A stretch of DNA of 64,000 nt from Raillietiella orientalis (lineage: Eukaryota): assembly GCA_036172245.1 (NCBI GenBank), contig JAYWIR010000035.1, forward strand, positions 2,170,001 to 2,234,000, written 5' to 3'. The notes under the pieces were generated by a model. That model did no database searches. It worked only from the letters and a program-made list of their open reading frames with translations, and had not been told where the DNA came from. This document shows positions 3,326 through 43,500 of the stretch, piece after piece. The number at the start of each line of letters is the position of its first letter. The stretch's first letter is position 1. A program made the translations under genes and the position numbers.

Positions 3326-4782
3326 TGCCGGGAATTTCCTCCCGCCGTCGTCTGCGCATCGCCGTTTGGAACGTGAACGGCATGACAGACGCCGGCAGGA
3401 GACGAGACATGGCCGCCCTTCTGGAGTCCTACGACCTTGCGCTGCTGCAGGAGATCCACGTGATCTTTGCAGAACAAGCGCAAGAGATCGAACGGATCTC
3501 CGGAGGGCGGCTATGGTACAGGTGTGGGAGAGCGAAAAGTTGCGGTGTCGCCTACCTGCTTCGGCCAGCCGTCGAGGCCGCGGCTCGGGGCGTGCGGTTC
3601 GACGATCACGGTCGTGTCGGCCAGCTGACTCTCAGGTGGTCCGACTCGATCGATCTGATCGTCACGAACGTGTACGCACCGAGCGGCAAGGACCTGATGA
3701 ACAGGAGGGCGAGGAAAGAGTTTTTCCTTGCCCTCCGGCGAGACTGGCTGACCGAAGCAGGCGTGCGGAATGCCCATCTGGTTGCAGGCGATTTCGACGT
3801 TCGCCTGAAACCAGATGGGCAGAATCCCGAGCGTGACCTGGTCAACGAGGTGTGCATGGCGGTGCACACCTGTAATTTGTTGGCCAGTGCACCGGGGATG
3901 GAAGACAGCATTGACCACGTGTTTCTTGACGAGCACCTGTGCCCTCGCGTGGGCAGGCGCGGCAAGTTACCGTGCGAGCTGTCCGACCATCGCCCGCTAT
4001 CCTCGAGATCCATCCGCGCGACAGGGGCCCCCCCTCGTCAGCGTGGCGTCTCCCAGGGGACTGGCTGAAGCTCCCGGACGCGGCGGAACATCTCCGCACG
4101 TTCATACGGAGCTTAAGGCTGCGGACACTCCAGGATTGGGACCGCTTCAAGCGGTCGGTCCAGGAGTTCTGCGACCAGTTCCCTCTGCACCGCCTACCTA
4201 CGGGTTTTTGGACCGGGATCCGTAACGAACGAGCCTACCTGCAGGCCCGTCGTTACGCCAGGACCCCCGACATCCGCAGGCTGGCGGAATACAAAGCGGG
4301 AGCCGAGAGGCAAGCCTGGTAGTCCGGATCGGCCAGCTTACTGGACGATCAGGGCCAGGAGCACTCGGCACCTGTCCAAATCCGCGGCCTGCTGCGGAGT
4401 TACTACTCCTCCCTGTATGCCAGGGCACCTCCGGAGAGGAACGTCTCACGACTCCTGCTTCCGGAAGGCGCTCCAGCGATCGGGGAGGAGCAGAGAAAGA
4501 CCCTCGACGAGCCTTTCACGATTGACGAGATCCTCTCGGCCATCGGAAAACTCAAGAGGCGAAAGGCTCCAGGGGAGGACGGCCTGCCCGCGGAGTTTTA
4601 TCAAACTTTCGCGGCTGAGCTTACCCCCCTGGTACAGCAACTCCCCTTGCTGATACGCGAAACAGGTGACGTTCCCGCCTTGTTTCGTTCGGCAAAGTTG
4701 CGGCTCCTACCTAAGGGAGATCTGAGGAGCATGAACAACTGGCGTCCCATCACAATAGTGAATGCGGACGCCAAGTTGCTGG
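3325..4782 (+). pseudogene. ORF2 N-terminal half of A (APE endonuclease, start of RT)
   Basis: WNVNG, LQE, NVYAP, GDF, IDHVF and SDH motifs, then KAPGEDG and NWRPIT; frameshift and stop present. Confidence 0.9.
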
Positions 4783-4988
4783 TTGCCACCCGGTCACGCC
4801 GGGACGTTTATTAAAAATTCTCTTTGATTCGTGGTACGAGGCCCCACTACGGCCAACTGAACTGGACCTGCGGGGTCGCCGGTACGCAGACAGGCACGAC
4901 TCTCCTCGGCAGCGGAAGGGGGTGGGGGAAAAAACAAAAAGAAAAATAAAACATAAAAACAAAAAGATTTGGGAGGGTTGTGGAGGGA

Positions 4989-7900
4989 TCACTGACCACT
5001 GGGAGGAGGGTCCATCCTTGGCAGGATGCCCTCGAGGTCCGTCCGTATAATTCCCAGTTGGGGCCATCTGGTCACATTCCGCAGGTAGCGGACTGCAAGT
5101 ACGACGGCATCCCTGTCGTGGCTCGGTCTTCTGACGTTGCTCCAGCACGTCACAATCCCGCGTACGCAGCAAAGTGCAGCCAGGGTAGCGGCTGGACGCA
5201 GGGCATCATGCACGAACAGAAGCCGAAAAACGTCTCTGGACTGGCTGCCCTCCTGGATCCGTAGGGAGGCACGAAGACGTTTTCACAGGGGTCGGAGGGC
5301 AGCACAATCAACAAGGAGGTGGGGGAGGGTTTCCCGTTCCCCACACCTGATGCAGGTAGGATCTACTCGACCCCTGGTCCAGTGGTGGCGGCGTGCGTTG
5401 CAAGGTAGACCCCAATGCAACAACAGAAGCGCCGACTCCTGCCACTTTAGGGGGAGGATCCTAGAACCAATTAATACCGGGGACCACTTCAGGGCATCCG
5501 TCTGGATGCCGAGTAGCTCACCCCATCTCTGAAGTCCTCTCGGCTAGACAGTAGGTCTAATGGCGTCCGCCAGTTCACCCGTGGACCAGCCGTTGATTAA
5601 CTTCTCCTTGCCTGCGATGCGGCAGGAGACTTGCCACCTAGGCTTGCGGCTGCTGGAGAGCGCCCTCCTCAGGAAGGGCATCGCCGTTGCTAGGGGGGTT
5701 GTCTCTGCCCACGTGCTTCTCGCGGGACACTGGAGTATCTTCCGCAGAGTGCTGCGGGAATAGGCGCCGCGTCGCAGGCAGTTCCACATCTCTTCATTCT
5801 TTTCATTAATCTTCGCCCACGTGCCAGCTGTCTCCTCCAGCCATGCGGAGGAGTTGGCGGGGCTGCATACCATCCAGCCGTTTTCCTTCGCCAGAGTTGC
5901 CATGCGTCCCAGGAGAAGTCCGCATCTCTTGATCTTCTTGCCACGGCAGAGAAGATAGGACGCGAGACCCTCCGTCCCGGATACACGGCTGGCAAGGAGT
6001 CGGGCCGGAACGCACCAAGAAGTGCTCCATAACTTCGCTGCGATGGCGAAGTTTCGCCACCGCAGCTGAATCTCTACTCGCTCCATCGTCAAGAGGCCGA
6101 GACCGCCATCCCGACGTGGAGCACACAAGTCCTTCAACGGGACTCGGGGCCTCCCTCTTCCCCAAAGGGCAATTCTCAGGAGGTCCTTCGTCCGTTTTTT
6201 CAACTCTCTGGGGACGGGGCAAACAAAAAGCAGGGGGCGGAGGATAGGAGCCGCGAACGCGTTCCATACCGCGGCCCGTTCCGGAAGGAGAAACTTGTCT
6301 TCCAGGAACGGGCCGATCGCCGTTTCCACTTTTTGGAGGCAGCCGGACCACGCTTCCGCAGGGGAGTAGTCCCCCAACGGCACACCAAGGTACTTCAAGC
6401 ACCTCGCCGTGGGGATCCCCAAGCGGACCCAGTCCTGCTGCCCAGCCCACGCCGCACCGACTGGAACCACCGTCGACTTCGCCCTGTTCACCGTAAGTCC
6501 GGTCCCGCGGCTAAGCAGATCGAAGAAATCCCCGACCGCCTTCGCCGGGGTGGACATCGGCAACAGAAGCAAAAGATCGTCGGCGTATGCTGCTACGGCG
6601 GGCGTGCCGGGGCACGAGCTCGGCAAGGGTGCCAAAGTCACCCTGTACGCTCTCAGCACCAACTCAAAGTAGGTGCTAAAGAGCAGGGGACTGAGGCTGT
6701 CGCCCTGCCGTATGCCCCGCCGTACCGGCACGCCGTACGCCATTTGACCTCTGAAAGAGATATTGATCAGCGCGCTGCGCCAGCAAGAGCGCAGGTAGGT
6801 CAGTAGGGAGGGAGGGAAGCCCATGCGTCCCAGGAGCTCCAGCAGGAGATCCTGGTCCACGCAGTCAAACGCTTTGTGCAGATCGACTGCGATCGCTAGG
6901 GCTCCCTTCCCCACCTGGGAGTCCTGTCCCTGCCCGGCTGACGCCCCCAAAGCGGGGCTGCCAATCCTTCCCTCTTCCTTTTCTTGACTACTCTGCACAT
7001 GAAACCATGTGCTCGCGAAGAAGAGGTTGGCCTCCATACTTCGCCCGGGAACAGCGTAAGTCTGCTCCGGGCTAATTATGGAATTGGCCACCTGCCCCAG
7101 ACGCGAAGCCCACAGTCCGGCGATCAACTTGGCGTCCGTGTTCACAATTGTGATCGGACGCCAGTTGCTGAGTTTCCTGAGGTCTCCTCCTTTCGGAAGG
7201 AGCCTCACTCTGGCTGACCGAAACGAGGCGGGTACATCGCCTTCATCTCGGATCAGCCTTGTCAACTCAAGCACCAGGGGTGCCAACTCTGCCGCGAAAC
7301 ATTGAAAAAACTCCGCAGGCAGGCCGTCCTCCCCTGGTGCTTTCCGCCTCTTGAGCCTTTTGATACCGGCGAGAATTTCGCCGGTGGTAAAAGGCTCGTC
7401 GAGGCTTTCCTTCTCCTCCTCCCCTATTGCCGGGGCACCGTTCGGAAGCATGCGCCGAGAGGCATCTTGGTCCGGGGGCGCCCTGGCGTAAAGGGAGGAA
7501 TAAAAACGCCGCACGAGGTGCCGTATTCTAGCCGGAGCCGAGTGCTCCCGGCCCTGGTCGTCCAGCAAGCTGGCCGATCCGGATTGCCAGGCTAGACGTT
7601 CGGCCCCGGCTCGGTATTCTGCCAGGCGAAGGACATTGGGAGTCCTCTCGTACCGGCGGGCGTGTAAATAGGCCCTATGGTTACGAGCCCCCTCCCCAAA
7701 TCCGGGGGGCAGGCGGTGCAGAGGGAACTCCTCGCAGAACTCGCGGACCGAGGCCTTCAAGAGGTCCCAATGTTTGAGACTGCGGAGGGTGACGCCTCTC
7801 AGGAATTCGCGAAGGTGTTCCTTCGCACCTGAGAGTCTCGTCCAGTCCCCAGGCAGACGCGACGCCCTGGATGGGGGCCCTTGTCGCGCGGGCATACCTC

Positions 7901-8574
7901 GAATATCAACCGGAAATGGTCAGGCAGCTCCGACGCAACTTTCCCCCGTTTGCCGACCCGTGAACACAGGTCGACATCCAGGAAGACGTGGTCGATGCTG
8001 CTGACCATTTCCGAAAGATCCCCTAACAAGTTGCGCGTGCGCATTGCGGCGCACAACTCGTTAGCCGTCCGTTCCTGTGCGTGTGGCTCACCTGATAGCA
8101 GGCGGAGATTAAAGTCTCCCGCTATCAGGTGAGCCACGCGCACGTTCGCTTCCACCAGCCAGTCGCGCTTTAGGGTTTCCAGGAACGCCTTACGTTCCTG
8201 GTATTGGTAGGACCGCTCGGAGCGTACACATTTGTTACGACGAGGTCGATCGTGTCGGACCACCTGAGAATCAGCTGGCCGACACGACCGGCTTCGTCGA
8301 AGCGCACGCCCTTCACGGCTGCGTCGACTGCCGGCTTCATAAAAAACGCGACGCCGCAGGTGTATCGGGTGCCGCATTGCCACATCAACCGTCCCCCTGC
8401 GATCCTTTCGATCTCCTGGGCGTTCTCCGCGGTGATCACGTGGATCTCCTGCAGGAGTGCCAGGTCGAAGTCACGCAGGGTGTCGGCCGTGTCCCGTCTG
8501 TTGCCGTCGTCGCGCAGCCCGTTCACGTTCCAGCAGGCCACGCGTAATCGACGGCGACAGGCGAGCCCAGGTGT
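4989..8574 (-). pseudogene. ORF2 of B1 (APE-RT-CCHC), frameshifted
   Basis: 783-aa open stretch 5544-7895 with the RT motifs; endonuclease split over frames 8170-8712 and 7799-8383; stop at 5544. Confidence 0.9.
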
Positions 8575-10546
8575 TACTCCTGGGAATGTGGCAATGGGGC
8601 TCCCGCCACCTGGTCGGGCGGGACGGATGGAGGCATGGGGGCACCGCCCAGCGGTTCTCCCACCTCCATGGGGGCCGATTCCTCGGCGGACCGCAACGGT
8701 TGAATGGAGCATGCTTCACGCACCTGCTTCCCCTCTTCCATGCGGGCCGATTCCTCGACTGCGATGGACGGCAGGGGGGAGCGGTTCTCAGCTGTCTGCT
8801 CCCCCTCTTCCATGACCATCTTCTCCGCAGGCTTCACCTGTGGAAGGGGGAGGCAATTCCCTACCTGCTCCCCCTCCTCCATGGGGGTGGCCGGCTGCTC
8901 GGTGGCGAAGGGTGGGAAAATTCCTACCTCCATTCCCACGCTGCCGGCTTCCCCCTCGGCTGCCGGTGCGTCCCCCTCGCTCTTCGTCGGGATGCGCCTC
9001 TTGGGATTCTTGGACTTCCGTCCAGTCTTCTTCGGAGGCGCCTCCGCGGAGGAGGACGCACTTCCGGCATCCGGTTCGTGGTCACCTGTCCGAGGTGCCT
9101 TGCTCGCGGCCGGCCTTCGCAAGGCCTTTCGCGCGCCGTTCTCACGCTGCGCGAGTTCGGCCGCGAGCTCTTCCGCCTCCTGCTGGAAGGCGGCGTCCTC
9201 GATTGCGGCGAGCGCGTCGCTCGGCTCCCCCTCTGTTTGCACAGAGGTTTCGCCTTTTTCGATCGCGGCTTCGGCGTCAACGAGGCGGGAGATATCTCCC
9301 CCGGTGGAGGTCTCGGGGAGCTCCACTCGCTCCAAAGCGACCGAACATTCGCGGAGCAACGCGCGGCGTTGTCTCCTATTTAAAGAAGATGTCGCGGGTT
9401 CCGCTGTCGGTTCTTCGGTATTCTTTAATTTTTTACTTTTAGGCTTCGCCTTATGCCAGCCCTCGCTCTCTCCAGCGTCGTCGGGAGTACCCTCGACCGG
9501 CGTTTGCTGTTCGGGCTCGGGCTCCGCCTGTGGGTTCCGCCTCAGGGGTGCCTTCGCAGGGTTTTCCGTAGCCTCCGAGCGTTTCCCTTTGGCCTTTTTC
9601 AAGGCAGCGGGAGCCGGGGGTTCGCGCTTCGGGCACACTTTGCGGAGGTGGCCCTTCTCTCCACAGTGGAAACACTGGATGTGAGGGCACCGCTTTTTCA
9701 GGTGCCCTGTGGCATCACAGTGTCCACAGTACTTGGGCTTGCCCACGTACCAGACGTCGACGGTCTCGTTGCCGACGTCTAGTTTGTGGGGTATCCCACC
9801 GTTTTCGTGGACGGTTACACGCGCACCAGCCATGCCACTAAACAGTCTTCCGTAACTCTGGAAGACGTTGGGCTTGGGCCATAGCGCGTGAACCGTTCCG
9901 TATTTTCCGAGTTCCTCCTGCACGTCGGCTTTCGACATGCGGAGGGTGACTCCCGTGAGGTGCGTCACCACGGAGCGATCCTCCGTTACCGGGAAAATCT
10001 TTCGGCCTTCCAGTGTGATTGGCGTATTCAGGAGGTGTTGAGCAAGGCTTGCATTTCTGCAAGTCAGCTCCACCCGCTGACCACCACTCAACATGGAAAG
10101 ACCTTCCAGGTCTTCCTCTTTTACGTTCAACCGCTGCAACTCCCTTTCGAAGTTGCGAGCGGTGTTCCCGACAAACAGATTGCCTACCTTGTATATCAGG
10201 GACGGCTTGTATCCCTGCTCCAGGTAGGCTTTCTGCTCGGCGAAGGCTGCAGGAGATGGGGCTGCAGCCACTGAACTCCAGGTCTTCGGCGACGCCGAAG
10301 ACGCATTCGAGGGGGCAGGTGCCCCCTTTTTCAAGGGGGCGGTTGCACCCTGTTCCAGCGAGCTTTTGCCCCCTTTTTCAAGGGGGCCTTTGCCCTCGCC
10401 TCCGAGGCGGCGGTTGCCCCCTTTTTCAGGGGTGCGGCTGCCGTCGCTTCCGTGGGGGCGGTTGCCCCCACCTCCGTGGGTTGGGGAGAGGAGGAAGCCT
10501 CTCCCCCTCCTATATCCATCGCGGTGTCCTCAGGCATTTCTGCCAT
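8574..10546 (-). pseudogene. ORF1 of B1
   Basis: Two CCHC knuckles (CGHCDATGHLKKRC, CFHCGEKGHLRKVC); ATG at 10546 with a frameshift in the N-terminal repeat tract. Confidence 0.85.
10318..10470. repeat. Short coding tandem repeat (GCGGTTGCCCCCTTTTTCAAGGGG; ATAPLKKG-like) in the B1 ORF1 N-terminus
   Basis: Several imperfect units; a longer version lies at 41433-41610 in B2. Confidence 0.75.
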
Positions 10547-10634
10547 TGGACACCGCAGATGCTTCACACACAAACAGTACCGAAAAAGAACGCTTTACAC
10601 CAGGCGCGGAGGAGCGCTACAAGAACACGTCCGC

Positions 10635-12767
10635 ACGCCAAGTTGCTGGCTAAGGTTTGGGCAGAGCGTCTGGGACGGGTTGCCAACATCTTCATCAGCC
10701 CGGAACAGACATATGCTGTTCCCGGGCGAAGCATGGAGGCGAACCTGTTCCACGCTTCCACCTGGCTAGAGCTCCAACATGGAAGGAGCTTGGTGCGCAG
10801 CCGGAATTCCGGTGCGTGCGCCGGCAAGGGGTTGGATGGTCGGGTGGGGGAGGGAGCCCTTGCGGTCGCAATCGACTTGCGAAAAGCATTCGATTGCGTC
10901 GACCAGAATCTCCTTCTGGAGCTTCTGGGACGCTTGGGCTTCCCGGCCTCATTAGTAACCTATCTGCGCTCCTGCTGGCGCGACGCGCTCATCAATGTTA
11001 CTTTCAGCGGGCACACCGTGCACGGCGTGCCGGTGCGGCGTGGGATCGGGCAGGGAGAAAGCCTGAGCCCCTTGCTCTTCAGTACCTACTTTGAGTTGGT
11101 ACTGAGAGCGTACAGGGGAACTCTGGCGCACCTGCCGCACGACTGTGCCGGTACGCCGGCCGTTTCAGCATACGCGGACGACCTTCTGCTGCTGCTCCCT
11201 ATGTCCACCCCGGCTGCGGCGGTCGAGGAGTTCTTCGACCTGCTGCATCGGGGAACCGGACTTACGGTGAAGAGGGCGAAGTCGTCCGTGATGCCAGTTG
11301 GTGCGGCGTGGGCAGGGCAGCAGGACTGGGTCCGTTTGAGGATCCCCACGGTGAGGTACTTCAAGTACCTTGGTGTGCCGTTGGGGGACTACTCCCCTGC
11401 GGAAGCGTGGTCCGGCTGCCTCCAAAAAGTAGAGACGGCTATCGGCCCGTTCCGAGGCGGCAGGTTTTTCCTGCCTGAACGGGCCGCGGTTTGGAACACG
11501 TTCGCGGCTCCTCTCCTCCGCTCCCTGCTTTTTGTTTGCCCCCCCACAGAGAGGATCAAAAAGCGGACGAAGGACCTCCTCCGTATCGCCCTTTGGGGCA
11601 ACGGGAGGGCTCGAGTTCGCTTAAAGGACTTGTGCGCTCCTCGTCGGGATGGTGGTCTGGGCCTCCTGACGCTGGAGCGGCTGGAGCTTCAGCTCCAGTT
11701 CCGCTTGTCGGCACTCGTTCCAGAGTTGTGGTGCACCTGTTGGTGCGTCCCTACACGTCTCCTACTCTAGCAAGCCACCGGGAAGACGAGACTGACGTCG
11801 TTTCTTGCACTCCGTGGCCGCGTCAACCGATGCGGACTTCAGCTACGGAGGGTGGCTGCGCTGTATCGGAAAAACCCAGGATTGCTCACCTGTCGCCCGT
11901 TGAACGGTAGTGCCTGGTTGCAGGAAACCGTTCAAACGGGGGGACAGTTCGGCATGCAACGCTCCCAACAGGAACGAAGGTTCCTGTCTGGGGGTTACAG
12001 AAGTTGCACGCTCCGCGAGATCCTGGAGGATCCAAAGAAGAGAGCGTGGGCAGGAAGAACCCCCCTCGCTGCTGCGTTGCCCTCCCTGATGGAAGATCTG
12101 GACAGCGATGTTGCGGCGAAGTGGGTGGTTACAGTAACAATCTCCGGAAAGGAGAGGAAGATAGGAGTGGAAGACGGGCCAGTTAACAGACGCTGCGAAC
12201 CCCAGTACGCCTCCCAATGGACTTCTGCGCTGAGGAGCGCTGCTGGATGTTCCGATTGAACATCTGAAGTGGCCCCCGGTGCTCATGAACACTTCCGCCC
12301 TCCCCTTAAAATGGCAGGAGTCGGCTCTCCTGTTGCAACACTGGGGACTTCCCTGCAACGCCCGCCGACACCACTGGACCTGGGAAGCGGTGGACCCCAA
12401 TTGCGTCAGGTGTGGGGAACGGGAGTCCCTCCCCCACCTGCTAGTGGATTGTGTTGCCCTTCGGCCCCTTTGGTTTCGCTTTGCCGCGGCCATCGGAATC
12501 CCCTGCGGCAACCCCAGGGACGCACTGAAAGCCCTCTTCGTTGCCGACGCCCTTCGGCCAGCGGCCTCGTTAGCAGCTTTGTGCTGCCTACGCGGGATCG
12601 TCACCGCTTGGAGCAAGGCTACGGGAGGACAACGCGACCAAGGTGCCATCCAGCCAGCCTCCCAGTTCCTGAGGAGAACGTCCCGATGGCCCCACCTGGA
12701 TCCAGGAATACAGAAAGAGCTTGCCGGCATCCTGCAAAGGATGCAACGGCCCCACCAGCAACTGTGA
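10635..12767 (+). pseudogene. ORF2 C-terminal half of A (RT + CCHC)
   Basis: Resumes DAKLLAKVWAERL; DLRKAFD, YADD, KYLG, CVRCGERESLPHLLVDC. Confidence 0.9.
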
Positions 12768-12985
12768 TCCCTTCCCTTACCCTCCCAACTTTTCTTTTGT
12801 TTCTTGTTTTGTTTTTTGTTTTTCCCCCTTCCCCCTGCTGCCGTGGTGGACGGTACCGGTCTGCGAACCGGTGACCCGGCAGGCTTTGTGTTTCTTCGTG
12901 CGTGGCTGGAGCAATGGTCCAGCCACCGCACGTCTTTGTAAAAGTTTATTTTACAATAAACGCCCCGGCGAAATCCGGGTGAAAA

Positions 12986-15153
12986 TCGAATGGTTTGTGC
13001 AAATCGACCGCGACGGCAAAGGCTCCCGCCGAGTCCGTCCTATCCTCTGCATGATCTTCTTGGTCAGAAGGGAGCGCGAGGCTCCCTTGACCATCCTGAG
13101 CAACGCATTGTCGCAACTGCCACCATGAGCTGGCGAGAAGCAGGTTGCCTCCATGGTTCGTCCGGGAACAGCGTAGGTCTGCTCGGGACTCACCACGGAA
13201 GCGGCAATCCGCCCCAAACGCTGAGCCCACAACTTGGCATACAGCTTAGGGTCCGCATTCACTACTGTGATGGTTCGGCAGTTGCCAATATTGCGTAAGT
13301 CTCCTGATTTCGGCAGGAGACGTACTTTTGCTGACCGGAACGAGGCGCGAACTTCGCCGTGTTCGCGGATCAGCGTACTCAACCTGAGCACCAGGGGGGC
13401 CAGCTCTGTCGCGAAGTGTTTGTAAAACTCCGAGGGCAGGCCGTCCTCCCCTGGTGCCTTCCGTTTCTTTAGCTTTTAGATGGCAGAGATGATCTCCACC
13501 ATCGTGAACGGTTCCGCCAACCTGAAACGATCCTCCTCCTTGAACGCTTGAGCACCATCCGGCAGCAGGCGCTGCGCGAAATGGCGCTCCGGTGTTAGTG
13601 GCGCGTACAAGGAGGAATAGAACTCCCGTACGATGCGGCTTACCTGAGCTGGGCTGGAGCGTTCTTGGCCCTGATGGTCCAGCAAGCAGGCCGAGCCTGA
13701 CTGCCAGGCCTGCCTCTCCGCCTCAGCCTTGAATTCTGCCAGGCGACGGACGTCGGGACGCCTGGAATAACGGCGGGTCTGAAGGGAGGCCCGCTCGTTC
13801 CTGACCCCATCGCCGAAACCCGGCGGAAGACGTTCCAGGGGAAACTGGTCGCAAAACTCGCGGACTGAGCACTTGATTTCGTCCCAGTCGGCGAGCGTCT
13901 CGAGATGAAATCCTCGCAGGAAGGCGCGTAGATGTTCCGCCGCTCCTGCGAGGCGCAACCAGTCCCCTGGCAGGCGCCACGTTTTCAAGGGAGGGCCCTG
14001 GTCGCGTGGATGTATCTCGAGCACGAGCCGTGGATGGTCGGACAGCTGTGCCTGGAGCGTTCCTCGAGTTCCCACCTGTGTGCACAGGTGGTTGTCGAGG
14101 AACATGTGGTCGATGTTCCGATCTCTCCCGGCATCACCGGCCAACAAGTTGCGCGCATTGATGGCTGCGCATAACTCGTTGACCAGTCGTGCTCGAATGC
14201 ACGGCGCACATGCCAGCAGGCGGAAGTTGAAGTCGCCCGCAATGAGGTGCGCCCGGCGTACGCTTGCTTGAGCCAACCAGTCTCGCCGCAGGGATTCGAA
14301 AAACCCAGTGCGTTCCTCGGCCCTGTGGTAGCATACCGGAGAGTACAGGTTCGTGACTGAGGTCGATCGAGTCGGACCACTTGAACGCAAGCTGCCCAAC
14401 TCTACCTTCCCCGTCGAACCTCACGCTGCGCACTGTGTTGTCGACGGCTGGCTTAAGTATAAAGGCCACTCCCCAGGAGCGGTCGTTTCCGTTCCTCCAC
14501 AGTTGCCGCCCTCCCGCGATTCTTTCGATTTCCTGGACTTCTTCTGCTTTGAGAACGTGCGTCTCTTGCAGGAGCACCAGGTCGAAGTCTCGCAGTATGG
14601 CGGCTACGTCTCGCCTCTTACCGTCGTCGCGGAACCCGTTGACGTTCCAACAGGTGATGCGCAAGCGGCGGCAGGAGGCGAGCCCACGCATTGGTGTGTT
14701 TATTGTGGGGTGGAGGCGTCCTTCGCCTTTGCGGGAGGCGGCTCTTTGGCGGCCGTGACGACGGACGGCTGCTCACACGGGAGCACGTCTTCCACAGCGA
14801 CATCCATCGGGCTGGCTTCCGAGACACGGATCGGAGAGGGGTCGCGTGGCGCGACGCACATTGCCTCCTCCTCCGTGCCCGATGACATGGCCTCCTTTAC
14901 CTTCGGAGAGGCGACCCGTGTCGGGCAACCGGTCTTCTAGCCAGCCTTCCTCTTCGGCACTGCTGCGGAAGTAGAACAACCGGCTTCGGTTTCGGACTCG
15001 GAATTTTCCGGGCCCTTCACCGTTGCCGGTCGTCTCCAGGCCTTCTTCTCGGCCTTGGCAGGCTGCCGTAACATGGCTGCCAGCTCTTCCGCGGCCTACG
15101 GGAAGGTCGCGTCCGTTATACGCGCCGCTTCCTCGCTTTCCGCACCGACGATT
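12986..15153 (-). mobile_element. Subfamily C, 5' part (end of ORF1, APE, RT start), 5'-truncated
   Basis: MRGLASCRRLRITCWNVNG at 14691; reads into AVAVDLHK at the A junction. Confidence 0.88.
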
Positions 15154-19469: not shown

Positions 19470-19872
19470 TAAAGCAGCCACGCCATCGCAAAAACAACCT
19501 CTAGTTTCCTTGACTGCATCTATTCAAACAAGGGCAACGTAATAAACAACACACAAAACTTGAAACAAATTTTATTAAAAGAGTCTTAAAACATTAGGTC
19601 ATAAATATGAAATATAAACACTATATACGAACTGCAGGTTCCTTCACCGCATGGGTTAGGCTGCAGGTAGTATCTCCTCATGCTGTCTAAGCCTCACTGA
19701 TCTAGGAAGCGTGTGCTCGAATGTTCGTATTGCTTCATATAACTTTGTCCTTATATGTGCTACGCGATCAGTTCCTACTTGCGGAGTGATCATTTAGATG
19801 AGCTTGAGGGATAACTCCTTGGGAACCTTAGAGCAGAAGGCCTCCCACTCCGGAGAAAGGTCCTCCTTAGAT

Positions 19873-20616: not shown

Positions 20617-20619
20617 GTG

Positions 20620-31100: not shown

Positions 31101-34100
31101 TCGAACGCATTGTGGAGATCGACTGCGAGCGCTATGGCCCCCTTTTTCCGCCCGGGGGTCCCTTTCCATCCCGGCTGGCGGCCCCAATGTGGAGTTGCCG
31201 ACTTTCCCTATCCCTTTCTTTTGTCTTCTGTGCAGGTGCACCCATGTGCTTGCGAAGAAGAGGTTGGCATCCATACTTCGCCCAAGAACAGCATAAGTCT
31301 GCTCCGGGCTAATTACGGATTCTGCCACCTGCCCCAGACGCGAAGCCCATAGCCCTGCTATCAACTTGGCGTCCGTATTCACGATCGTAATCGGACGCCA
31401 GTTCTTTAAATCCCTGAGGTCTCCCCCTTTCGGAAGGAGCCTCACTCTGGCTGACCGAAACGATGCGGGAACATCGCCTTCGTCTCGGATCAGCCTGCTC
31501 AACTTAAGCAGCAGGGGTGCCAGCTGTTCTGCGAAGCTCTGAAAGAACTCCGCGGGCAAGCCGTCTTCCCCTGGAGCTTTACACCTCTTGAGCCTGTTGA
31601 TACCGGCGAGAATTTCGCTGGTGTTAAAAGGCTCGTCGAGGCTTTCCATCTTTTCCTCCTTTATTGCCGGGGCGCCATCCGGAAGCAAGCGGCGAGAGGC
31701 GTTTCGATCCGGGGGCTCCCTGTTGTAAAGGGAGGAATAGAAACTCAGCACGAGATGCCGTAGCGACGCCGGGGACGAACATTCCCGGCCCTTGTCGTCC
31801 AGCAAGCTGGCCGACCCGGATTGCCAGGCTTGGCGTTCGGTCCCGGCGCGGTACTCGGCCAGGCGACGGACATTAGGGGTTCTCTCGTACCTACGAGCCT
31901 GTAAATAGGCCCGATGGTTGCAAGCACCCTCGTTGAATCCGAGGGGCAGGCGATCCAAGGGGAACTGCTCACAGAACTCGCGGACCGATTCCTTAAAAAG
32001 GTCCCAGTCCTGCAGATTCCGGAGCGTCGAGCGGACGTGTCTTTTGGTTCCTCCTGAGTTCCATTTCCGTTGGTGTTTGTGCGTGGTGTGGGTGGAGGGT
32101 TAGGCAGCAATGCTTGATACCACAACCGGTGAGGATCCGGGGGCGTTGACCTCATTGCCCCCGGAGCAGATGGAGGTGGGGGCTCCCGCATCAGTGGAGG
32201 CTCCCGCCCGCACGGATGCGCCCCCGGCCCTACCCTGGGCTTGGAACGCCGTGGCTGCGGCACCTACGCCAGCGGCTATGGCGGAAATGCGCGCTTACCT
32301 GGAGGAGGGGTATAACCCACCCCTTCTATATAAGGTAGGCGGTCTATATTCTCCCGAGAACGCGCGCTCATTCTCACAGGCGATGCGCGTTCTCGGCGTA
32401 CAGAAAGAGGAGCTTCTGGCTATGTCCGTCAGAAGCGGGGGTCAATTTGTGGAAGTTATCTGCAATGAGGGAACTCTTGCGCAGAGACTTCTGCGAACCC
32501 CCGTAATTATGGGCAGCCGGAGGCTTCTCCCAATTACTGAAGACCGGTCGGTGATCATTAACCTGACCGGTATCACGTTCCGGATGACGAAGGAGGCCGT
32601 CCGGAACGAATTGGAAAAATTCGCAACTGTCCACGCGCTGTGGGGAAAGCCTACTCCTTTTGTCGATTAGGACGGGTTTCTTGGCGGCCTGGGTGCAGCG
32701 CGAGTGACGGTTCGCGAGGGATGTGAGGTTCCCTACAAACTCACCGTCAACGGTGAATCCGTTGACGTGTGGTACGTGGGGAAACCCAAGTTTTGCGGCT
32801 GCTGCAGCAGCTTTGGTCACCTTAAAATGAGGTGTCCGAGCGTGCAGTGCCAGCAATGCAAACACGCGGGGCACACCCGTCTGGTGTGCCCCCAAAACAC
32901 AGTCCGCGTCGTGTCCGCGAAAAACGCGAGAAAGCGCGCGGCTAAAAAGAGGAAAAAGCTGGCAGCTCGTGCTGCTGCTAAGGAGATCACTTCCGCCACC
33001 CAGGCGAAGGCCAGCCCGGAGACCCTGGCGAAAAACGCCGAAAAGGTCGAGGGCGAGGGTCAAGAGCCAGGGTGGCAGGAGGTCGATCCCAAGAAAAACA
33101 CCCATAAGAAAAGAAAGAACGTGGCAAAACGGAGCGAAACCGCTCTGCGCCGCGAAAAAATTAAAAGCTGCTGCGTCGTTGTATAGCGGATTCCCGCCAT
33201 CGACGAATGCGGCGCTAAAGAACTCGCTGCTGCCCCTGCTCAACCCTCCGTTGACAAAGTCAACAAGGAGAAGAGCGAGGCGGCGGCGTCCGTCATTGAG
33301 CTCACGCTCGATGACGTCGCCTTCGAGCGCGCCGCGGAGGAGCTGGCTGCCTCGTTGGAGCCGGTTGCCCCCAAGGCTGGCAAGAAGGCCGTCAGGCGTC
33401 CGGCTTCCCCTCAGGAGTCGGCCACTTCCGACCCCGAGGTGAAGGCCGGAAACACAGCATCCATCTCCGCGGCACCCCGCAAAAAGGCAGGACGAAAGTC
33501 CACAATGTCCCTTAAGATCGTCTCCCCCGACGAAGGGGAAGAGATGGCTTCCGGTAGCGAGGGTGCCATGAGCGTGGGAAAATCCCGGGACCCGTCGCCC
33601 GAGAGAATTCCACTCTCGGACACGGAGGGGATGGTGAGGATGGAGGCCGAACAGGTACCCCAGGCGCCTGAAGAGGCCTCCGTCCTCGTACCGATGGACC
33701 TGTCCTACACCTGCCCCGCGGCAGGTGCCGCGACGCCACTTTCCCAGCCTTAATGCCGGGAATCGCCTCTCGCCGTCGTCTTCTGATCGCCTGTTGGAAC
33801 GTGAACTGGCTAAGCGACGACGGCAAGAGGCATGACGTGGCCGCCACCCTGGCATCCTTCGACCTGGTGCTGCTGCAGGAGATCCCCGTGATCTCCGCAG
33901 ATCAAGCCCGGAAGATCGAACGGATCTCGGGTGGGCGGATGTTGTGGCGTTGCGGCACCGCGAAATCAAGCGGTGTCGCCTTCCTGCTTCGGCCAGCCAT
34001 CGAGACCGCAATAAAGGACGTTCGGTTCGATGACGCAGGTCGCGTCGGTCAACTGACTCTCAGCTGGTCCGACTCTATCGACCTGGTCGTCACCAACCTA

Positions 34101-35213
34101 TACGCTCCTAGCGGAAATAACGCGTTGAAGGCGAAGGCAAGAAGGGAATTCTACCTTGCCCTGAGACGCGATTGGCTGACCGATGCAGGAGTTCGCAAAG
34201 CGCACCTGATCGCAGGTGATTTCAACCTGCGGCTGCTTTCAGGTGCGCCGGATACACTGAACGACCGCGTCAACGAGTTGTGCGCAGAAATGAACACGCG
34301 CAACTTGTTGGCCGGGGAACGGCCATGGAAAGCAGCATCGATCACGTGTACCTTGATCAGCACCTATGCTCTCGGGTGGGCAGGCGCGGCAAGGTACCAT
34401 CCGAGCTGTCGGACCATGGTCGGATCATGTTCGAAGTGCGTCCGCGCGACAAGGGCCCCCCCTCGTCAGCATGGCGTCTGCCAGGGGACTGGCTGAAGTT
34501 TCCCGACGCGGCGGAGCACCTCCGCGCGTTTATTCGGAGCTTCAGGATGCAGACACTTCAGGACTGGGACCGCTTCAAGCGGTCGGTCCAGGAGTTCTGC
34601 GATCAGTTCCCCCTGCATCGCCTACCTGCGGGATTTGGGGAGGGGCCGCGTAACGAAAGGTGCTATCTTCAGGCCCGACGTTACGCGAGAACCCCCGACA
34701 TGCGCAGGTTAGCAGAGTATCGAGCGGGAGCCGAGAGGCAAGCCTGGCAATCCGGGTCGGCCAGCTTGCTGGACGACCAGGGCCGGGAGCACTCGCTTCC
34801 CGCTCAGAAACGCGAGATAGTGAGGAAATTTTCCTCCTCCCTGTACGCCAGGGCGCCTTCGGAGCGAGACGTCTCACGACTTCTGCTTCCGGAAGGTGCT
34901 CCAGCGATCGGGGAGGAGGAGAAAAGAAGCCTTGACGAGCCTTTCACGATGGACGAGATCCTCTCGGCCCTCGGAAAGCTCAAGAGGCGGAAGGCTCCAG
35001 GGGAGGACGGCCTGCCCGCGGAGTTTTACCAAACTTTCGCGGCTGAGCTTACTCCCCTGGTACATCAGCTCACCTTGCTGATCCGTGAAACAGGTGACGT
35101 TCTCACCTCGTTTCGTTCAGCAAAGGTGCGGCTCCTCCCGAAGGGAGGAGACCTAAGGAGCATGAACAACTGCCGTCCCATCACAATAGTGAATGCGGAT
35201 GCCAAGTTGATAG

Positions 35214-38200
35214 TTGCCACCCGGTCACGCCGGGGCGTTTATTTAAAATTCTCTTTGGTTCGTGGTACGAGGCCCCACTACGGCCAACTCAACTGGACCT
35301 GCCGGGTCGCGGGTACGCAGACCGGCGCGACTCTCCTCGGCAGCGGAAGGGGGTGGGGGAAAAAACAAAAAGAAAAATAAAACATAAAAACAAAAAGATT
35401 TGGGAGGGTTGGGGAGGGATCACTGACCACTGGGAGGAGGGTCCATCCTTCGCAGGATGCCCTCGAGGTCCGTCCGTATAATCCCCAGGTGGGGCGATCT
35501 GCTCACAATCCGCAGTTAGCGGACTGCAAGTACGACGGCATCCCTGTCGTGATTCGGTCTTCCGACGTTGCTCCAGCACGTCACAATCCCGCGTACGCAG
35601 CAAAGTGCAGCCAGGGCAGCGGCTGGACGCAGGGCATCATGCACGAACAGAAGCCGAAAAACGTCTCTGGGCTGGCTGCCCTCCTGGATCCGTAGGGAGG
35701 CACGAAGACGTTCCCACAGTGGTCGGAGGGCAGCACAATCAACAAGGAGGTGGGGGAGAGTTTCCCGTTCCCCACACCTGATGCAAGTAGGATCTACTCG
35801 ACCCCTGGTCCAGTGGTGGCGGCGTGCGTTGCAGGGTAGACCCCAATGCAACAACAGAAGCGCCGACTCCTGCCACTTTAGGGGGAGGATCCTAGAACCA
35901 ATTAATACCGGGGGCCACTTCAGGGCATCCGTCTGGATGCCGAGTAGCTCACCCCATCTCTGAAGTCCACTCGGCTGGACAGTAGGTGTACTGGCGTCCG
36001 CCAGTTCACCCGTGGACCAGCCGTTGATTAACTTCTCCTTGCCTGCGATGCGGCAGGAGACTTGCCACCTAGGCTTGCGGCTGCTGGAGAGCGCCCTCCT
36101 CAGGAAGGGCATCGCCGTTGCTAGGGGGGTTGTCTCTGCCCACGTGCTTCTCGCGGGACACTGGAGTATCTTCCGCAGAGTGCTGCGGGAATAGGCGCCG
36201 CGTCGCAGGCAGTTCCACATCTCTTCATTCTTTTCATTAATCTTCGCCCACGTGCCAGCTGTCTCCTCCAGCCATGCGGAGGAGTTGGCGGGGCTGCATA
36301 CCATCCAGCCGTTTTCCTTCGCCAGAGTTGCCATGCGTCCCAGGAGAAGTCCGCATCTCTTGATCTTCTTGCCACGGCAGAGAAGATAGGACGCGAGACC
36401 CTCCGTCCCGGATACACGGCTGGCAAGGAGTCGGGCCGGAACGCACCAAGAAGTGCTCCATAACTTCGCTGCGATGGCGAAGTTTCGCCACCGCAGCTGA
36501 ATCTCTACTCGCTTTATCGTCAAGAGGCCGAGACCGCCATCCCGACGTGGAGCACACAAGTCCTTCAACGGAACTCGGGGCCTCCCTCTTCCCCAAAGGG
36601 CAATTCTCAGGAGGTCCTTCGTCCGTTTTTCAACTCTCTGGGGACGGGGCAAACAAAAAGCAGGGGGCGGAGGATAGGAGCCGCGAACGCGTTCCATACC
36701 GCGGCCCGTTCCGGAAGGAGAAACTTGTCTTCCAGGAACGGGCCGATCGCCGTTTCCACTTTTTGGAGGCAGCCGGACCACGCTTCCGCGGGGGAGTAGT
36801 CCCCCAACGGCACACCAAGGTACTTCAAGCACCTCGCCGTGGGGATCCCCAAGCGGACCCAGTCCTGCTGCCCAGCCCACGTCGCACCGACTGGCACCAC
36901 CGTCGACTTCGCCCTGTTCACCGTAAGTCCGGTCCCGCGGATAAGCAGATCGAAGAAATCCCCGACCGCCTTCGCCGGGGTGGACATCGGCAACAGAAGC
37001 AAAAGATCGTCGGCGTATGCTGCTACGGCAGGCGTGCCGGGGCACGAGCTCGGCAAGGGTGCCAGTCACCCTGTACGCTCTCAGCACCAACTCAAAGTAG
37101 GTGCTAAAGAGCAGGGGACTGAGGCTGTCGCCCTGCCGTATGCCCCGACGTACCGGCACGCCGTACGCCATTTGACCTCTGAAAGAGATATTGATCAGCG
37201 CGCTGCGCCAGCAAGAGCGCAGGTAGGTCAGTAGGGAGTGAGGGAAGCCCATGCGTCCCAGGAGCTCCAGCAGGAGATCCTGGTCCACGCAGTCAAACGC
37301 TTTGTGCAGATCGACTGCGATCGCTAGGGCTCCCTTCCCCACCTGGGAGTCCTGTCCCTGCCCGGCTGACGCTCCCAAAGCGGGGCTGCCAATCCTTTCC
37401 TCTTCCTTTTCTTGACTACTCTGCACATGAAACCATGTGCTCGCGAAGAAGAGGTTGGCCTCCATACTTCGCCCGGGAACAGCGTAAGTCTGCTCCGGGC
37501 TAATTATGGAATTGGCCACCTGCCCCAGACGCGAAGCCCACAGTCCGTCGATCAACTTGGCGTCCGTGTTCACAATTGTGATCGGACGCCAGTTGCTGAG
37601 TTTCCTGAGGTCTCCTCCTTTCGGAAGGAGCCTCACTCTGGCTGACCGAAACGAGGCGGGTACATCGCCTTCATCTCGGATCAGCCTTGTCAACTCAAGC
37701 ACCAGGGGTGCCAACTCTGCCGCGAAACATTGAAAAAACTCCGCAGGCAGGCCGTCCTCCCCTGGTGCTTTCCGCCTCTTGAGCCTTTTGATACCGGCGA
37801 GAATTTCGCCGGTGGTAAAAGGCTCGTCGAGGCTTTCCTTCTCCTCCTCCCCTATTGCCGGGGCACCGTTCGGAAGCATGCGCCGAGAGGCATCTTGGTC
37901 CGGGGGCGCCCTGGCGTAAAGGGAGGAATAAAAACGCCGCACGAGGTGCCGTATTCTAGCCGGAGCCGAGTGCTCCCGGCCCTGGTCGTCCAGCAAGCTG
38001 GCCGATCCGGATTGCCAGGCTAGACGTTCGGCCCCGGCTCGGTATTCTGCCAGGCGAAGGACATTGGGAGTCCTCTCGTACCGGCGGGCGTGTAAATAGG
38101 CCCTATGGTTACGAGCCCCCTCCCCAAATCCGGGGGGCAGGCGGTGCAGAGGGAACTCCTCGCAGAACTCGCGGACCGAGGCCTTCAAGAGGTCCCAATG

Positions 38201-41200
38201 TTTGAGACTGCGGAGGGTGACGCCTCTCAGGAATTCGCGAAGGTGTTCCTTCGCACCTGAGAGTCTCGTCCAGTCCCCAGGCAGACGCGACGCCCTGGAT
38301 GGGGGCCCTTGTCGCGCGGGCATACCTCGAATATCAACCGGAAATGGTCAGGCAGCTCCGACGCAACTTTCCCCCGTTTGCCGACCCGTGAACACAGGTC
38401 GACATCCAGGAAGACGTGGTCGATGCTGCTGACCATTTCCGAAAGATCCCCTAACAAGTTGCGCGTGCGCATTGCGGCGCACAACTCGTTAGCCGTCCGT
38501 TCCTGTGCGTGTGGCTCACCTGATAGCAGGCGGAGATTAAAGTTGGAGGCTTTGTGGTTAAGGCCTCCGCGCGTGGCACCATGCGTCGCGGGATCGAATA
38601 CTCTGGCAGAAACTGACGCCACTGCGTCGTTGGGTTCCGAGTTTCTCCTGCAATGGCGCTGGTTGGCCGATAACATTCGGGCGTGGCACCGGTGGTCGTT
38701 TAAGCCGGAGGCCCCTGATGGAGGCCGGAACAATGGAAGTCGACCTTCGGGTCCTTCCAGGAATCCAAGGAGTGGGGAGTTCCCCCTCCGGTCGTGCAAC
38801 GGAGAGCGGACCCCCTTAGCTGGGGTCCCATCCGAGTCGTCGCCTCTTCACAGAGTGCAAGAGAAGGAACATGGAGCAGGAGCCCAAGCGGGGCTCCTCT
38901 CCTAGTTGTTCGATGGAGCGGACCCCCTCAGCGGGGGTACCCTCCCAGTCGTCGCCTCTTCACAGAGTGTGCGCAATGAAGCAAGCGAGAGCGATTCCCT
39001 GCGGGAAGCTGCAGCGGCCCTTCTGAGTTTCGGAAGCGTCCCTTCGGGGTTGTCTTCAGAGGAGTGAATAAAGGAGCGGTTCCCTTGCGGGTTCCCTCCG
39101 GAGAAGTTGAAATGGAGAGGACAGCCCCTCCCCATTGGGGAGGGAGGGTCCCTCCGGAGAGAATAAGGAAAGAGACAACCAGGGTGGGAGGTGCGATCCC
39201 CCCAAGGGTGAGAGAGGAAACGGAGATTAAAGTCTCCCGCTATCAGGTGAGCCACGCGCACGTTCGCTTCCACCAGCCAGTCGCGCTTTAGGGTTTCCAG
39301 GAACGCCTTACGTTCCTGGTATTGGTAGGACCGCTCGGAGCGTACACATTTGTTACGACGAGGTCGATCGTGTCGGACCACCTGAGAATCAGCTGGCCGA
39401 CACGACCGGCTTCGTCGAAGCGCACGCCCTTCACGGCTGCGTCGACTGCCGGCTTCATAAAAAACGCGACGCCGCAGGTGTATCGGGTGCCGCATTGCCA
39501 CATCAACCGTCCCCCTGCGATCCTTTCGATCTCCTGGGCGTTCTCCGCGGTGATCACGTGGATCTCCTGCAGGAGTGCCAGGTCGAAGTCACGCAGGGTG
39601 GCGGCCGTGTCCCGTCTGTTGCCGTCGTCGCGCAGCCCGTTCACGTTCCAGCAGGCCACGCGTAATCGACGGCGACAGGCGAGCCCAGGTGTTACTCCTG
39701 GGAATGTGGCAATGGGGCTCCCGCCACCTGGTCGGGCGGGACGGATGGAGGCATGGGGGCACCGCCCAGCGGTTCTCCCACCTCCATGGGGGCCGATTCC
39801 TCGGCGGACCGCAACGGTTGAATGGAGCATGCTTCACGCACCTGCTTCCCCTCTTCCATGCGGGCCGATTCCTCGACTGCGATGGACGGCAGGGGGGAGC
39901 GGTTCTCAGCTGTCTGCTCCCCCTCTTCCATGACCATCTTCTCCGCAGGCTTCACCTGTGGAAGGGGGAGGCAATTCCCTACCTGCTCCCCCTCCTCCAT
40001 GGGGGTGGCCGGCTGCTCGGTGGCGAAGGGTGGGAAAATTCCTACCTCCATTCCCACGCTGCCGGCTTCCCCCTCGGCTGCCGGTGCGTCCCCCTCGCTC
40101 TTCGTCGGGATGCGCCTCTTGGGATTCTTGGACTTCCGTCCAGTCTTCTTCGGAGGCGCCTCCGCGGAGGAGGACGCACTTCCGGCATCCGGTTCGTGGT
40201 CACCTGTCCGAGGTGCCTTGCTCGCGGCCGGCCTTCGCAAGGCCTTTCGCGCGCCGGTCTCACGCTGCGCGAGTTCGGCCGCGAGCTCTTCCGCCTCCTG
40301 CTGGAAGGCGGCGTCCTCGATTGCGGCGAGCGCGTCGCTCGGCTCCCCCTCTGTTTGCACAGAGGTTTCGCCTTTTTCGATCGCGGCTTCGGCGTCAACG
40401 AGGCGGGAGATATCTCCCCCGGTGGAGGTCTCGGGGAGCTCCACTCGCTCCAAAGCGACCGAACATTCGCGGAGCAACGCGCGGCGTTGTCTCCTATTTA
40501 AAGAAGATGTCGCGGGTTCCGCTGTCGGTTCTTCGGTATTCTTTAATTTTTTACTTTTAGGCTTCGCCTTATGCCAGCCCTCGCTCTCTCCAGCGTCGTC
40601 GGGAGTACCCTCGACCGGCGCTTGCTGCACGGGTTCGGGCTCTGGCTGTGGGTTCCGCCTCTCGGGTGCCTCCTTAGGCTTGTCCGATCGCCCTGCGCGT
40701 TTCCCTTTGGCTTTTTTCAAAGCAGGGGGAGCCGGGGTTTCGCATTTAGGACACACCTTCCGCAGGTGGCCCTTTTCGCCGCAGTTGAAGCACTGGATGT
40801 GGGGGCACCGTTTTTTCAGGTGCCCTGTTGCATCACAGTGCCCACAGTACTTGGGCTTGCCCACGAACCAGACGTCGACGACCTCGTTGCCGACGTCGGG
40901 TTTGTGGGGCAGCCCACCGTTTTCGTGGACCGTCACACGCGCTGCAGCCATGCCACTGAACAGTCTTCCGTATGTTTGGAAGACGTTGGGCTTGGTCCAG
41001 AGCGCGTGCACCGTACCATGTTTTTGTAACTCTTCCTGCACGCCAGCTTTGGTCATGCGAAGAGTTACACCCGTAAGGTGGGCAACAATGGAGCGGTCCT
41101 CCGTTACAGGGAACACCTTTCGGCCTTCCAGAGTGATGGGAGTGTTCAGCAGGCGTTGAGCCAGACTTGCATTTTTGCACGTCAGCTCTACCCGCTGGCC

Positions 41201-41801
41201 CCCACGCATCACGGAGACACCTTCCAGGTCTTCCTCTTTAACATCCAACCGCTGTAACTCCCTTTCAAAGTTACGAGCGGTGTTCCCTATAAACAGGTTT
41301 CCTACCTTGTAAATCAAGGACGGCTTGTATCCTTGTTCCAGGTAGGCCCGTTGTTCTGCTAAGGCAGCAGGAGATGGCGCTGCAGCCACGGAGCTCCAGG
41401 TCTTCGTGCATGGAGCAGGTGGATCCAAGGACGCGGTTGCCCCCTTTTTCAAGGGGGCGGTTGCGGCCTTTTCCAAGGCGGCGGTTGTCCCCTTTTTCAA
41501 GGGGGCGGTTGCGGCCTTTTGCACGAGAACGGTTGCTCGCTTTTTCAAGGTGGCAGTAGCCCTCGTTTCCGGAGAGGCGGTTGCCCCCTTTTTCAAGGGA
41601 GCGGTTGCTCTCTACTCCGTGGGGGCGGTTGCCTTCACCTCAATAGGTTGGGGAGAGGAGCAATCCTCTCCCCCGCCGACTTCCATCGCGGTGTCCTCAG
41701 GCATTTCTGCCATTGGACACCGCAGATGCTCCACACACAAACACTACCGAAAAAGAACGCTTTACAACAGGCGCAGGGGAGCGCGGAAATAACACGTCCG
41801 C
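35214..41801 (-). mobile_element. Full-length subfamily B copy 2
   Basis: TSD A(T/C)GCCAAGTTGATAG (35199-35213 / 41802-41816); ORF1 about 39692-41713; ORF2 frameshifted. Confidence 0.95.
38544..39220. mobile_element. 677-bp non-LINE, hairpin-rich insert with 13-bp TSD
   Basis: CGGAGATTAAAGT at 38531-38543 and 39221-39233; the site is empty in B1 (8103-8115). Confidence 0.92.
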
Positions 41802-43500
41802 ACGCCAAGTTGATAGCCAAGATGTGGGCAGAGCGTCTGGGACGGGTTGCCAACATCTTCATCAGCCCGGAACAGACTTATTCTGTTCCCTGGCGGAGCA
41901 TGGAGGCGAACCTGTTCCACGCTTCCACATGGTTAGAGCTCCAACAAGGAAGGGGCTTATTGAGCAGCCGGAATTCCGGTGCGTAAGTTGGCGGGAGACA
42001 AAACGGTCGAGTGGGGAAGGGAGCCCTTGCGGTCGCTGTCGACTTGCGTAAAGCATTCGACAGCGTCGACCAGAATCTCCTGCTGGAGCTTCTGGAACGC
42101 TTGGGCTTCCCGGCCTCTTTGTTGGCCTACCTGCGCTCCAGCTGGCGCGACGCGCTCATTAATGTTCTTTTCCGCGGGCAAACCGTGCACGGAGTACCGG
42201 TGCGACGCGACATTCGGCAGGGAGACAGCCTGAGCCACCTGCTCTTTAGCGCCTTTTTCGAATTGGTGCTGAGAGCGTACAGGGAGACTCTTGCGCACCT
42301 GCCGTGCGATTGCCCCGGTACGCCTGCGGTTTCGGCGTACGCGGACGATCTTCTGCTGCTGCTGCCTATGTCCACCCCGGCCTCGGCGGTCGAGGACTTC
42401 TTCGACCTGCTGAGTCGTGGAACAGGACTGACGGTGAACAGGGCGAAGTCGTGCGTAATGCCAGTCGGAGCGGCGTGGGCAGGGCAGCAGGACTGGGTCC
42501 GTTTGGGGATCTCCACGGTGAGGTACTTCAAGTACCTTGGTGTGCCGTTGGGGGATTACTCCCCTGCGGAAGCGTGTTCCGGCTGCCTTCAGAAGGCTCA
42601 GGCGGCGATCGGCCCGTTCCAGGACGGCAGGTTCTACCTGCAGGAACGGGCCACGGCGTGGAACGCGTTTGCGGCCTACCTCCTTCGCCCTTTGCTTTTT
42701 GTTTTCCCCCCCTCAGCGGAGTCAAAGAAGAGGACGAAGGACCTCCTGAGGATCGCCATTTGGGGCAGAGGGAGGCCCCGTGTCCGTCTTTCGGACTTGT
42801 GCGCTCCTCGTCGGGATGGTGGTCTGGGCCTCCTGACGTTGGAGCGGCTGGAGCTACAGCTCCAGTTCCGAGTTGTTGCGTTTATGGCAGGAAATTGGTG
42901 AACCCCTTGGTGCCTCCCTGCACGTCTCCTCGTCGAGCGGGCCACCGGCAATGCGGGACTCTCGTCCTACTTTGCACTCCGAAGCCCCATCTGCCACTGC
43001 GGACTTCAACTTCGGAGGGCGGCCAAGCTCGTGAAGAGCAACTCGGCGCGGATCCTCGTACGCCCCGCGAACGGTCCTGCCTGGTTGCAGGAAACCGTCC
43101 GCACGTGGGCGATGACTCAGGAGCAGAGCCCGCAACACGAGCGAATAGCTCTGTTCGGGCCGCATGCCCGCCGCACGCTCCGAGAAATCATCGAGAATCC
43201 CCGAAGGAGAGCGTGGGCACAAAGAACCTCCCTTGCTGCGGTACTGCCTACCCTACGGGAACATCTGGGCAGCGACGTCGCGGCACAATGGGAGGTTACT
43301 GTCAAGATCGCCAGCAGGGCAAAGAAGATCGGGGATTGGAGAACGGGTCAGCTCACCAACGCTGCGACCCCGAGGACCACCCCAAATGGAGTGTTGCGCT
43401 GGGGAGAGCTACTGGATGTTCCAGAGGAACATCTCGAGTGGCCCCCGGTGCTCATGGACTCGCGCACCCTCCCCATGAAGTGGCAACAGTCGGCACTGCT

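Follow-up and report, generated by a model that had tools for sequence, protein, structure and literature searches.

Two antisense LINE insertions at the same reverse transcriptase codons of diverged sibling elements in Raillietiella orientalis

Target-specific LINEs occupy safe sites that include RNA genes, microsatellites, telomeres, other transposon classes and their own copies. Several members of the Tx1 clade are aimed at transposons, and two reports place Tx1L in Tx1D, Tx1-Mar in Mariner-N4_AMi, Tx1-8_Crp and Tx1-4_AMi in LTR retrotransposons, and Tx1-9_AMi in Harbinger (PMC4494074, PMC1950540). In the first, a Tx1 element is taken to be specific when over 20% of its flanks lie in one repeat (PMC4494074), and the second describes an extended betaB5-betaB6 hairpin loop as a feature of the Tx1-clade endonuclease, and L1 as nicking a short TTTT/AA consensus genome-wide (PMC1950540). 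The L1-type elements Zepp of Coccomyxa and ZeppL of Chlamydomonas build GC-rich islands of nested LINE copies with 5' truncation, and Zepp is described as targeting its own copies, with one centromeric cluster per chromosome (PMC8226300, PMC3446292).

The window analysed here, a 64-kb stretch of the R. orientalis genome, is likewise a GC-rich nest of related non-LTR retrotransposons, with a zinc-knuckle ORF1 and an ORF2 that combines APE and RT, and a low-GC gap at about 19.5-22.3 kb is its sole stretch outside the LINE nest. Family letters are labels of this analysis, with A, A' and B as in the preliminary description, and genome-wide statements refer to an assembly of 210 Mb in 491 contigs. 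Family B resembles Tx1 elements in having APE and RT, a fixed site inside another TE, target duplications and tandem re-use of the site. Unlike Tx1, B-type elements have as targets the conserved coding motifs of close LINE relatives, and many families take part, each with its own site and in a reciprocal manner; B furthermore lacks a poly(A) tail and has an apparently shortened APE hairpin region. Compared with Zepp by description, B differs in entering sibling families and rarely itself, at one base and in antisense, and the nests lie on many contigs of this contig-level assembly. Transposon-targeting Tx1 and self-nesting Zepp are known systems; no instance of mutual codon-level targeting among LINEs was found in the full-text literature within reach, which leaves aside most subscription papers and Repbase Reports and is not proof of novelty. 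A LINE family that aims at the RT codons of its relatives, within a set of mutual hits, would show direct competition between retrotransposons, and mutual targeting would explain the growth of such repeat islands. Sibling APEs with different targets would also make the gain of long-site specificity testable, which bears on tools for site-specific gene insertion. The pair of insertions described below, B1 and B2, is one well-supported edge of this community of mutually targeting LINEs, and on its own a small piece of it.

Two B elements in diverged hosts

The preliminary description had placed both insertions at the same RT codon of diverged hosts that themselves sit in different targets, and this is borne out in each part. 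B1 and B2 lie within the N-A-D-A-K-L codons of the plus-strand hosts A1 and A', respectively (Table 1). The two hosts are 74% identical to the left of the insert and 78% identical to the right, with 84-86% identity within 900 bp of the site. Host A1 sits antisense in an E element, at the D-L-H-K-A-F-D codons, and host A' sits antisense in a C element, at a T-L-R-N-L linker, each with a duplication of its own. The same-sequence flanks reported for the two inserts are also present: on the plus strand, AAGTTGCTGG is confined to 4773 and 10640 and AAGTTGATAG to 35204 and 41807, and both pairs of 10-mers bracket a minus-strand B element. The length of the target duplication, given earlier as 15 bp, has to be corrected to 13 bp. 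All five B copies that have both ends and a host GAT on the left read CAC on the right, and the two bases that precede the duplication on the 5' side of B are therefore B's own.

Table 1. Features of the two nested loci, in window coordinates
Feature	Position	Strand	Remarks
Outer duplication of host A1	1544-1558 / 12986-13000		15 bp, 3 mismatches
Host A1, 5' part	1559..4782	+	ORF1, APE, RT up to the N-A-D-A-K-L-L codons
B1 target duplication, left copy	4770..4782	+	GCCAAGTTGCTGG
B1	4783..10636	-	Full-length non-LTR retrotransposon, APE and RT
B1 RT frame	5544-7919	-	ORF2 (APE, RT) in frameshifted pieces
B1 tract shared with B2	6980..9500	-	B nt ~1135-3660, 99.9% identical to B2
B1 ORF1	8574-10529	-	Zinc knuckle
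B1 target duplication, right copy	10637..10649	+	GCCAAGTTGCTGG
Host A1, 3' part	10650..12985	+	Remaining RT, 3' UTR, family tail
Outer duplication of host A'	32014-32027 / 49674-49687		14 identical bases
Host A', 5' part	32028..35213	+	
B2 target duplication, left copy	35201..35213	+	GCCAAGTTGATAG
B2	35214..41803	-	Full-length B copy, 5' subtype other than that of B1
B2 RT frame	35516-38347	-	
Duplication around the 677-bp repeat	38531-38543 / 39221-39233		13 bp
677-bp repeat inside B2 APE	38544..39220	+	Dispersed, non-coding; at the G-D-F-N codons
B2 ORF1	39692-41611	-	
B2 target duplication, right copy	41804..41816	+	GCCAAGTTGATAG
Host A', middle part	41817..43500	+	
Element F	~43501-49012	-	Second interruption of host A'
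Host A', 3' end	49013..49670	+	

Copies of B have target duplications, include 5'-truncated forms and carry no LTRs. ORF1 contains a CCHC zinc knuckle, with PF00098 above the cut-off on ORF1 of both B1 and B2, and ORF2 has an N-terminal APE followed by RT, with PF03372 and PF00078 on the open 1242-aa frame of a copy elsewhere in the assembly (L140); the C-terminal zinc-binding region, PF13966, gives an E value of 0.0014 on B ORF2, below the cut-off. The catalytic motifs of the APE are invariant or nearly so among 14 aligned B copies and align with those of the human LINE-1 ORF2p endonuclease. The best profile and fold matches of the B APE are likewise to the LINE-1 endonuclease (PDB 1vyb, 8sp5), relative to which the segment leading into the hairpin loop, the loop that guides targeting in L1 and Tx1L, is about 16 residues shorter in the alignment. 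In a structure model of the APE, pLDDT is under 50 at residues 153-218, and the loop region of the model is unreliable. A poly(A) or simple-repeat 3' tail is typical of L1. The 3' end of B1 consists of AATAAA, a small hairpin and GCAA, and B 3' ends read GGGTGGCAA directly on the target with no poly(A). Over the RT, B is about 30% identical to named database proteins, and protein searches turned up an unnamed RT at 71% and a 106-aa APE fragment but no named close relative. An RT tree that holds no named Tx1 reference unites the families of this genome and one metagenomic protein in one group (SH-aLRT 100), on a long stem and with no supported sister. The copy at L140 (324-5911, minus strand) also has an open ORF1 of 667 aa and is a tandem insertion into the junction of a previous B copy. 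At the N-terminus of ORF1, B contains a 24-bp tandem repeat, with about 7 copies at 10306-10480 and about 9 at 41424-41633.

Over their first 1150 nt, B1 and B2 are 83.5% identical to one another and about 95.5% identical to two further copies, one for each, and these different 5' subtypes support separate origins of the two insertions. Their 3' ends are 97.7% alike and are sisters in a tree (100/99). The 2.5 kb between, B nt 1135-3660, contain only 3 differences, and within nt 1200-3600 B1 and B2 share 30 columns, including a one-base deletion, that are absent from 12 other full copies; 13 differences listed at B nt 2521 are an artefact of imperfect removal of the insert in B2. The shared middle looks closer to the subtype of B2, and B1 is without the 677-bp insert, so a conversion into B1 would have preceded the arrival of that insert. 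Gene conversion from the B2 type into B1 is the most likely source of the shared middle, with assembly blending as the other candidate. None of the short contigs of one DNA sequencing run (0.15 share) bridges the switch point of B1, and a look-up of sequencing runs listed no RNA run. Dating the insertions by the identity of B1 and B2 was rejected because the middle is homogenised.

The 677-bp repeat has 96 matches in the assembly, with 100% copies on contigs C7 and C373. One other copy, inside an A-type LINE, has the same end base and its own duplication, and two others run on. An Rfam search with the insert of B2 gave no real match, and the repeat is best described as SINE-like and not site-specific. 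A 3366-bp stretch of contig C373 (L150) is a 99.9% duplicate of window 38543-41908 and is possibly an unplaced haplotig.

Target duplications and the genome-wide site of B

Uninterrupted hosts had been predicted to carry the duplication variant of the insert found in their own subfamily, and they do. At all nine empty loci whose two flanks match A1 at 93% or more, the first variable position is C (4 CTG, 5 CTA), and CTG is exactly the variant of B1; ATA GCC, the variant of B2, stands at all three empty loci whose two flanks match A' at 96% or more. The pattern of the empty A-family site has 351 matches in the genome, of which 30 loci were examined. The A1 clade is polymorphic at the second variable position, and there are exceptions, in that CTA is found in one mostly A'-like copy (L066) and A'' and C share the GATAG variant. 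The two variable positions fall on bases 1 and 3 of a Leu/Ile codon. Both agree on the two sides in 18 of the 21 B copies that have both ends, against 8.9 under permutation (p ~1e-5), with L125 and L129 left out as their insides are not one collinear B. Host families differ between the two sides in three of the 21 (L134, L165 and L092+L037), suggestive of crossing-over between B copies or of joins made in assembly.

The claim that B1 and B2 are two independent insertions stands, given that each duplication matches its own host subfamily, the hosts had already diverged and the 5' subtypes differ. The same co-variation had been regarded as the strongest evidence for targeting; it serves well for independence but not for recognition, since the co-varying bases are positions that B tolerates, and it is through this tolerance that the duplications co-vary with the host. 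From comparison of the sequences, B evidently met hosts that already differed and tolerated both variants. Stronger evidence of specificity than co-variation is the genome-wide tally of insertions together with the motif at off-target sites.

In order to make this tally, 3' ends of B were found with a 32-mer of the B 3' UTR that includes no flank, which gave 85 matches (0 for the reversed control); as the 32-mer derives from B1 and B2, older B subfamilies are under-sampled. All 85 were inspected, and three had too little flank. The proposed sequence-specific targeting holds genome-wide, like the independence of the insertions, as 69 of the 82 informative ends lie antisense at the homologous RT site, which is above the 20% of flanks in one repeat used for Tx1, although some B copies may be amplified composites and 69 may overstate the number of independent events. 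These 69 comprise 66 assigned by rule, one shifted by a base (L217) and two tandem re-insertions (L193, L200), with L217 and L193 reassigned to the site by eye; a looser rule that put 75 on target was replaced as too loose. On-target hosts are of at least six types, drawn from A1, A', A'', a fourth A type, C, E-like, F-like and a B-like relative. The remaining 13 ends are off target, at 7 distinct sites, and all 7 end in G-N-T-N-G, which has a window background of 1.6% (p ~3e-13), with the TT upstream of this motif also kept in 4 of them. Three 5'-truncated copies of 574, 874 and 956 nt (L057, L184 and L035) occupy the site, each with a breakpoint and a duplication of its own, and are therefore not derivable by copying one nest; in a check of 16 loci, truncated copies with duplications of 13-16 bp were present in 5, and most others had no clear duplication. 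The count of specificity leaves out 80 5' junctions because the search pattern contains the target. A sample by generic tail (30 of 499 matches), which also takes in other families and many short copies, is more dispersed.

A tree of B with 37 rows is star-like with scattered host labels, which are somewhat clustered (19 changes vs 23.4 when shuffled), and it contains one 100/100 clade of 5 copies found only in C-type hosts. Five off-target B junctions (L240-L243 and L246) are identical, four of them within ~20 kb of a contig end, and are probably a duplicated contig-end region.

How the site may be chosen

Taken together, B is very probably a sequence-specific L1/Tx1-type non-LTR retrotransposon, a member of a local radiation, that inserts antisense at one RT-codon bond of its siblings, with B1 and B2 as separate events. 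Within the conserved N-x-D-A-K-L-(L/I)-A codons of sibling RT genes, insertion is at a single phosphodiester bond and leaves a 13-bp duplication. In the proposed mechanism, the B APE would nick the host sense strand after G-N-T-N-G, with GCCAAGTTG-N-T-N-G as the best context, the free 3' end would prime reverse transcription from the GCAA end of B, and a second nick in the other strand, 13 nt upstream, would produce the duplication. We infer that the APE sets the site from known TPRT chemistry, by analogy with R1Bm and Tx1L (PMC1950540, PMC4494074). With each family of the radiation having its own fixed site in sibling ORFs, nests would grow from within.

The two loci could instead descend from one nested structure of host and B, with divergence after a segmental duplication or after copying as a read-through composite. 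The sister position of B1 and B2 in the 3' tree and their 99.9% identical middle would fit such a history, as would the clade confined to C-type hosts, and exact duplicate loci do exist, as the five identical off-target junctions and the 99.9% part-B2 copy on contig C373 illustrate. However, the hosts are 74-78% alike vs 96% for the inserts, the outer targets of the hosts and the 5' subtypes of the inserts differ, each duplication matches its own host subfamily, and truncated copies with separate breakpoints share the same bond. Duplication is thus largely refuted for B1 vs B2 and overall highly improbable, while some other loci may fit it. Recombination among copies, visible in the B1/B2 tract and in the three host-discordant copies, lends some color to a homing-like spread, in which gene conversion between homologous flanks would have carried one insertion into related hosts that were still empty, and the RT motif is indeed the best-conserved part of the hosts. 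Such copying would be expected to carry along the donor duplication and flanks, yet host-diagnostic bases begin directly after the duplication; C, E-like and F-like hosts are too distant for such tracts, and separate junctions are seen for each of the truncated, tandem and off-target copies. We give this explanation very little credence.

It is also conceivable, though unlikely, that the endonuclease contributes only a short G-N-T-N-G nick preference and that the site is set mainly by another step, such as pairing between the host and B RNA or cDNA, or a tether to transcripts or chromatin of the host. By itself, G-N-T-N-G turns up about once in 60 bp, too frequently to specify one site, the hairpin region of the APE is apparently shortened, most families insert antisense, and B's own RT contains homologous sequence, all of which would suit such a step. 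Against it, the 3' tail of B shares at most 1-2 bases with the target, and the TT retained at 4 of 7 off-target sites fits graded recognition by a protein. Off-target copies lie outside LINE RT sequence, and copies of the G family insert in sense, both of which also speak against such a step.

Sibling families and their sites

The APE domains of the sibling families are 53-75% identical to that of B and go with different targets. Fixed antisense sites are seen for A1 at D-L-H-K-A-F-D, A' at the T-L-R-(N/S)-L linker, C at P-G-F-G, the I family at G-G-R-L in APE and H in ORF1, and the G family inserts at G-D-F-N in sense orientation; these sites come from loci fetched for B and are a biased sample. 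Targeting is reciprocal, in that B is itself a host of A1 (L133, L148), A' (L126, L157, L159) and C (L012, L146), with A1 > B > A1 nested directly in L148. Common to the families are a GGACGTG-like 5' motif and a 3' end of the form AATAAA-hairpin-NNAA without poly(A), where the hairpin folds in 7 of 8 family ends and better than shuffles in only 2 of 8. Head-to-tail tandem re-insertion at used sites occurs in several families, at window 28998, 59950 and 17640 and at L014, L156, L006 and L171.

One base of the target differs between filled and empty sites. Among 76 filled B 3' junctions, none has C at position -2, a base present in 30 of 68 exact-match empty C sites (counted by eye; 181 matches overall) and, at B's own site, in 18 of 21 exact matches (187 overall). 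Within C hosts of the ATA/ATC type, C at -2 is found in 0 of 11 filled vs 30 of 67 empty sites (p = 0.005, or 0.04 when only 6 of the filled sites are counted as independent). Counter-cases are 3 of 67 5' duplication copies and the off-target copies L221, L044 and L052, all with C at -2. B's own ATC variant has no filled site among the 76 3' junctions despite the 187 empty B-type sites, and one 5' junction (L162) lies in a B-like host. C at -2, as in B's own gene, may mark self-avoidance.

A wider and more tentative proposal, which we hold to be possible but somewhat doubtful, is that about ten LINE families form a network of mutual attack, in which endonucleases with a shortened hairpin region would read different protein-constrained codon runs and disable rivals, with evasion through silent changes such as C at -2, which places a CpG at the nick. 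If true, LINEs would practise self-avoidance and synonymous escape among themselves, and the families would offer a natural panel of related endonucleases with different long targets.

Within the low-GC stretch at 19500-22300, a 288-aa frame (19873-20739) without a good match adjoins a 242-aa frame (20959-21687, minus strand) that has a Walker A-like GGNGKT motif and a weak match to the helicase PF00910 (E 0.005, below the cut-off). The latter is reminiscent of the helicase part of CRESS-virus Rep proteins.

ORF1 and ORF2 overlap by a TAATG stop-start in A1, G and F (window 3322, 26237 and 47336). In B (window 8575 and 39693) and C (50473), the ORF1 stop is present with no ATG there, which suggests that B and C start ORF2 in another way than A1, F and G.
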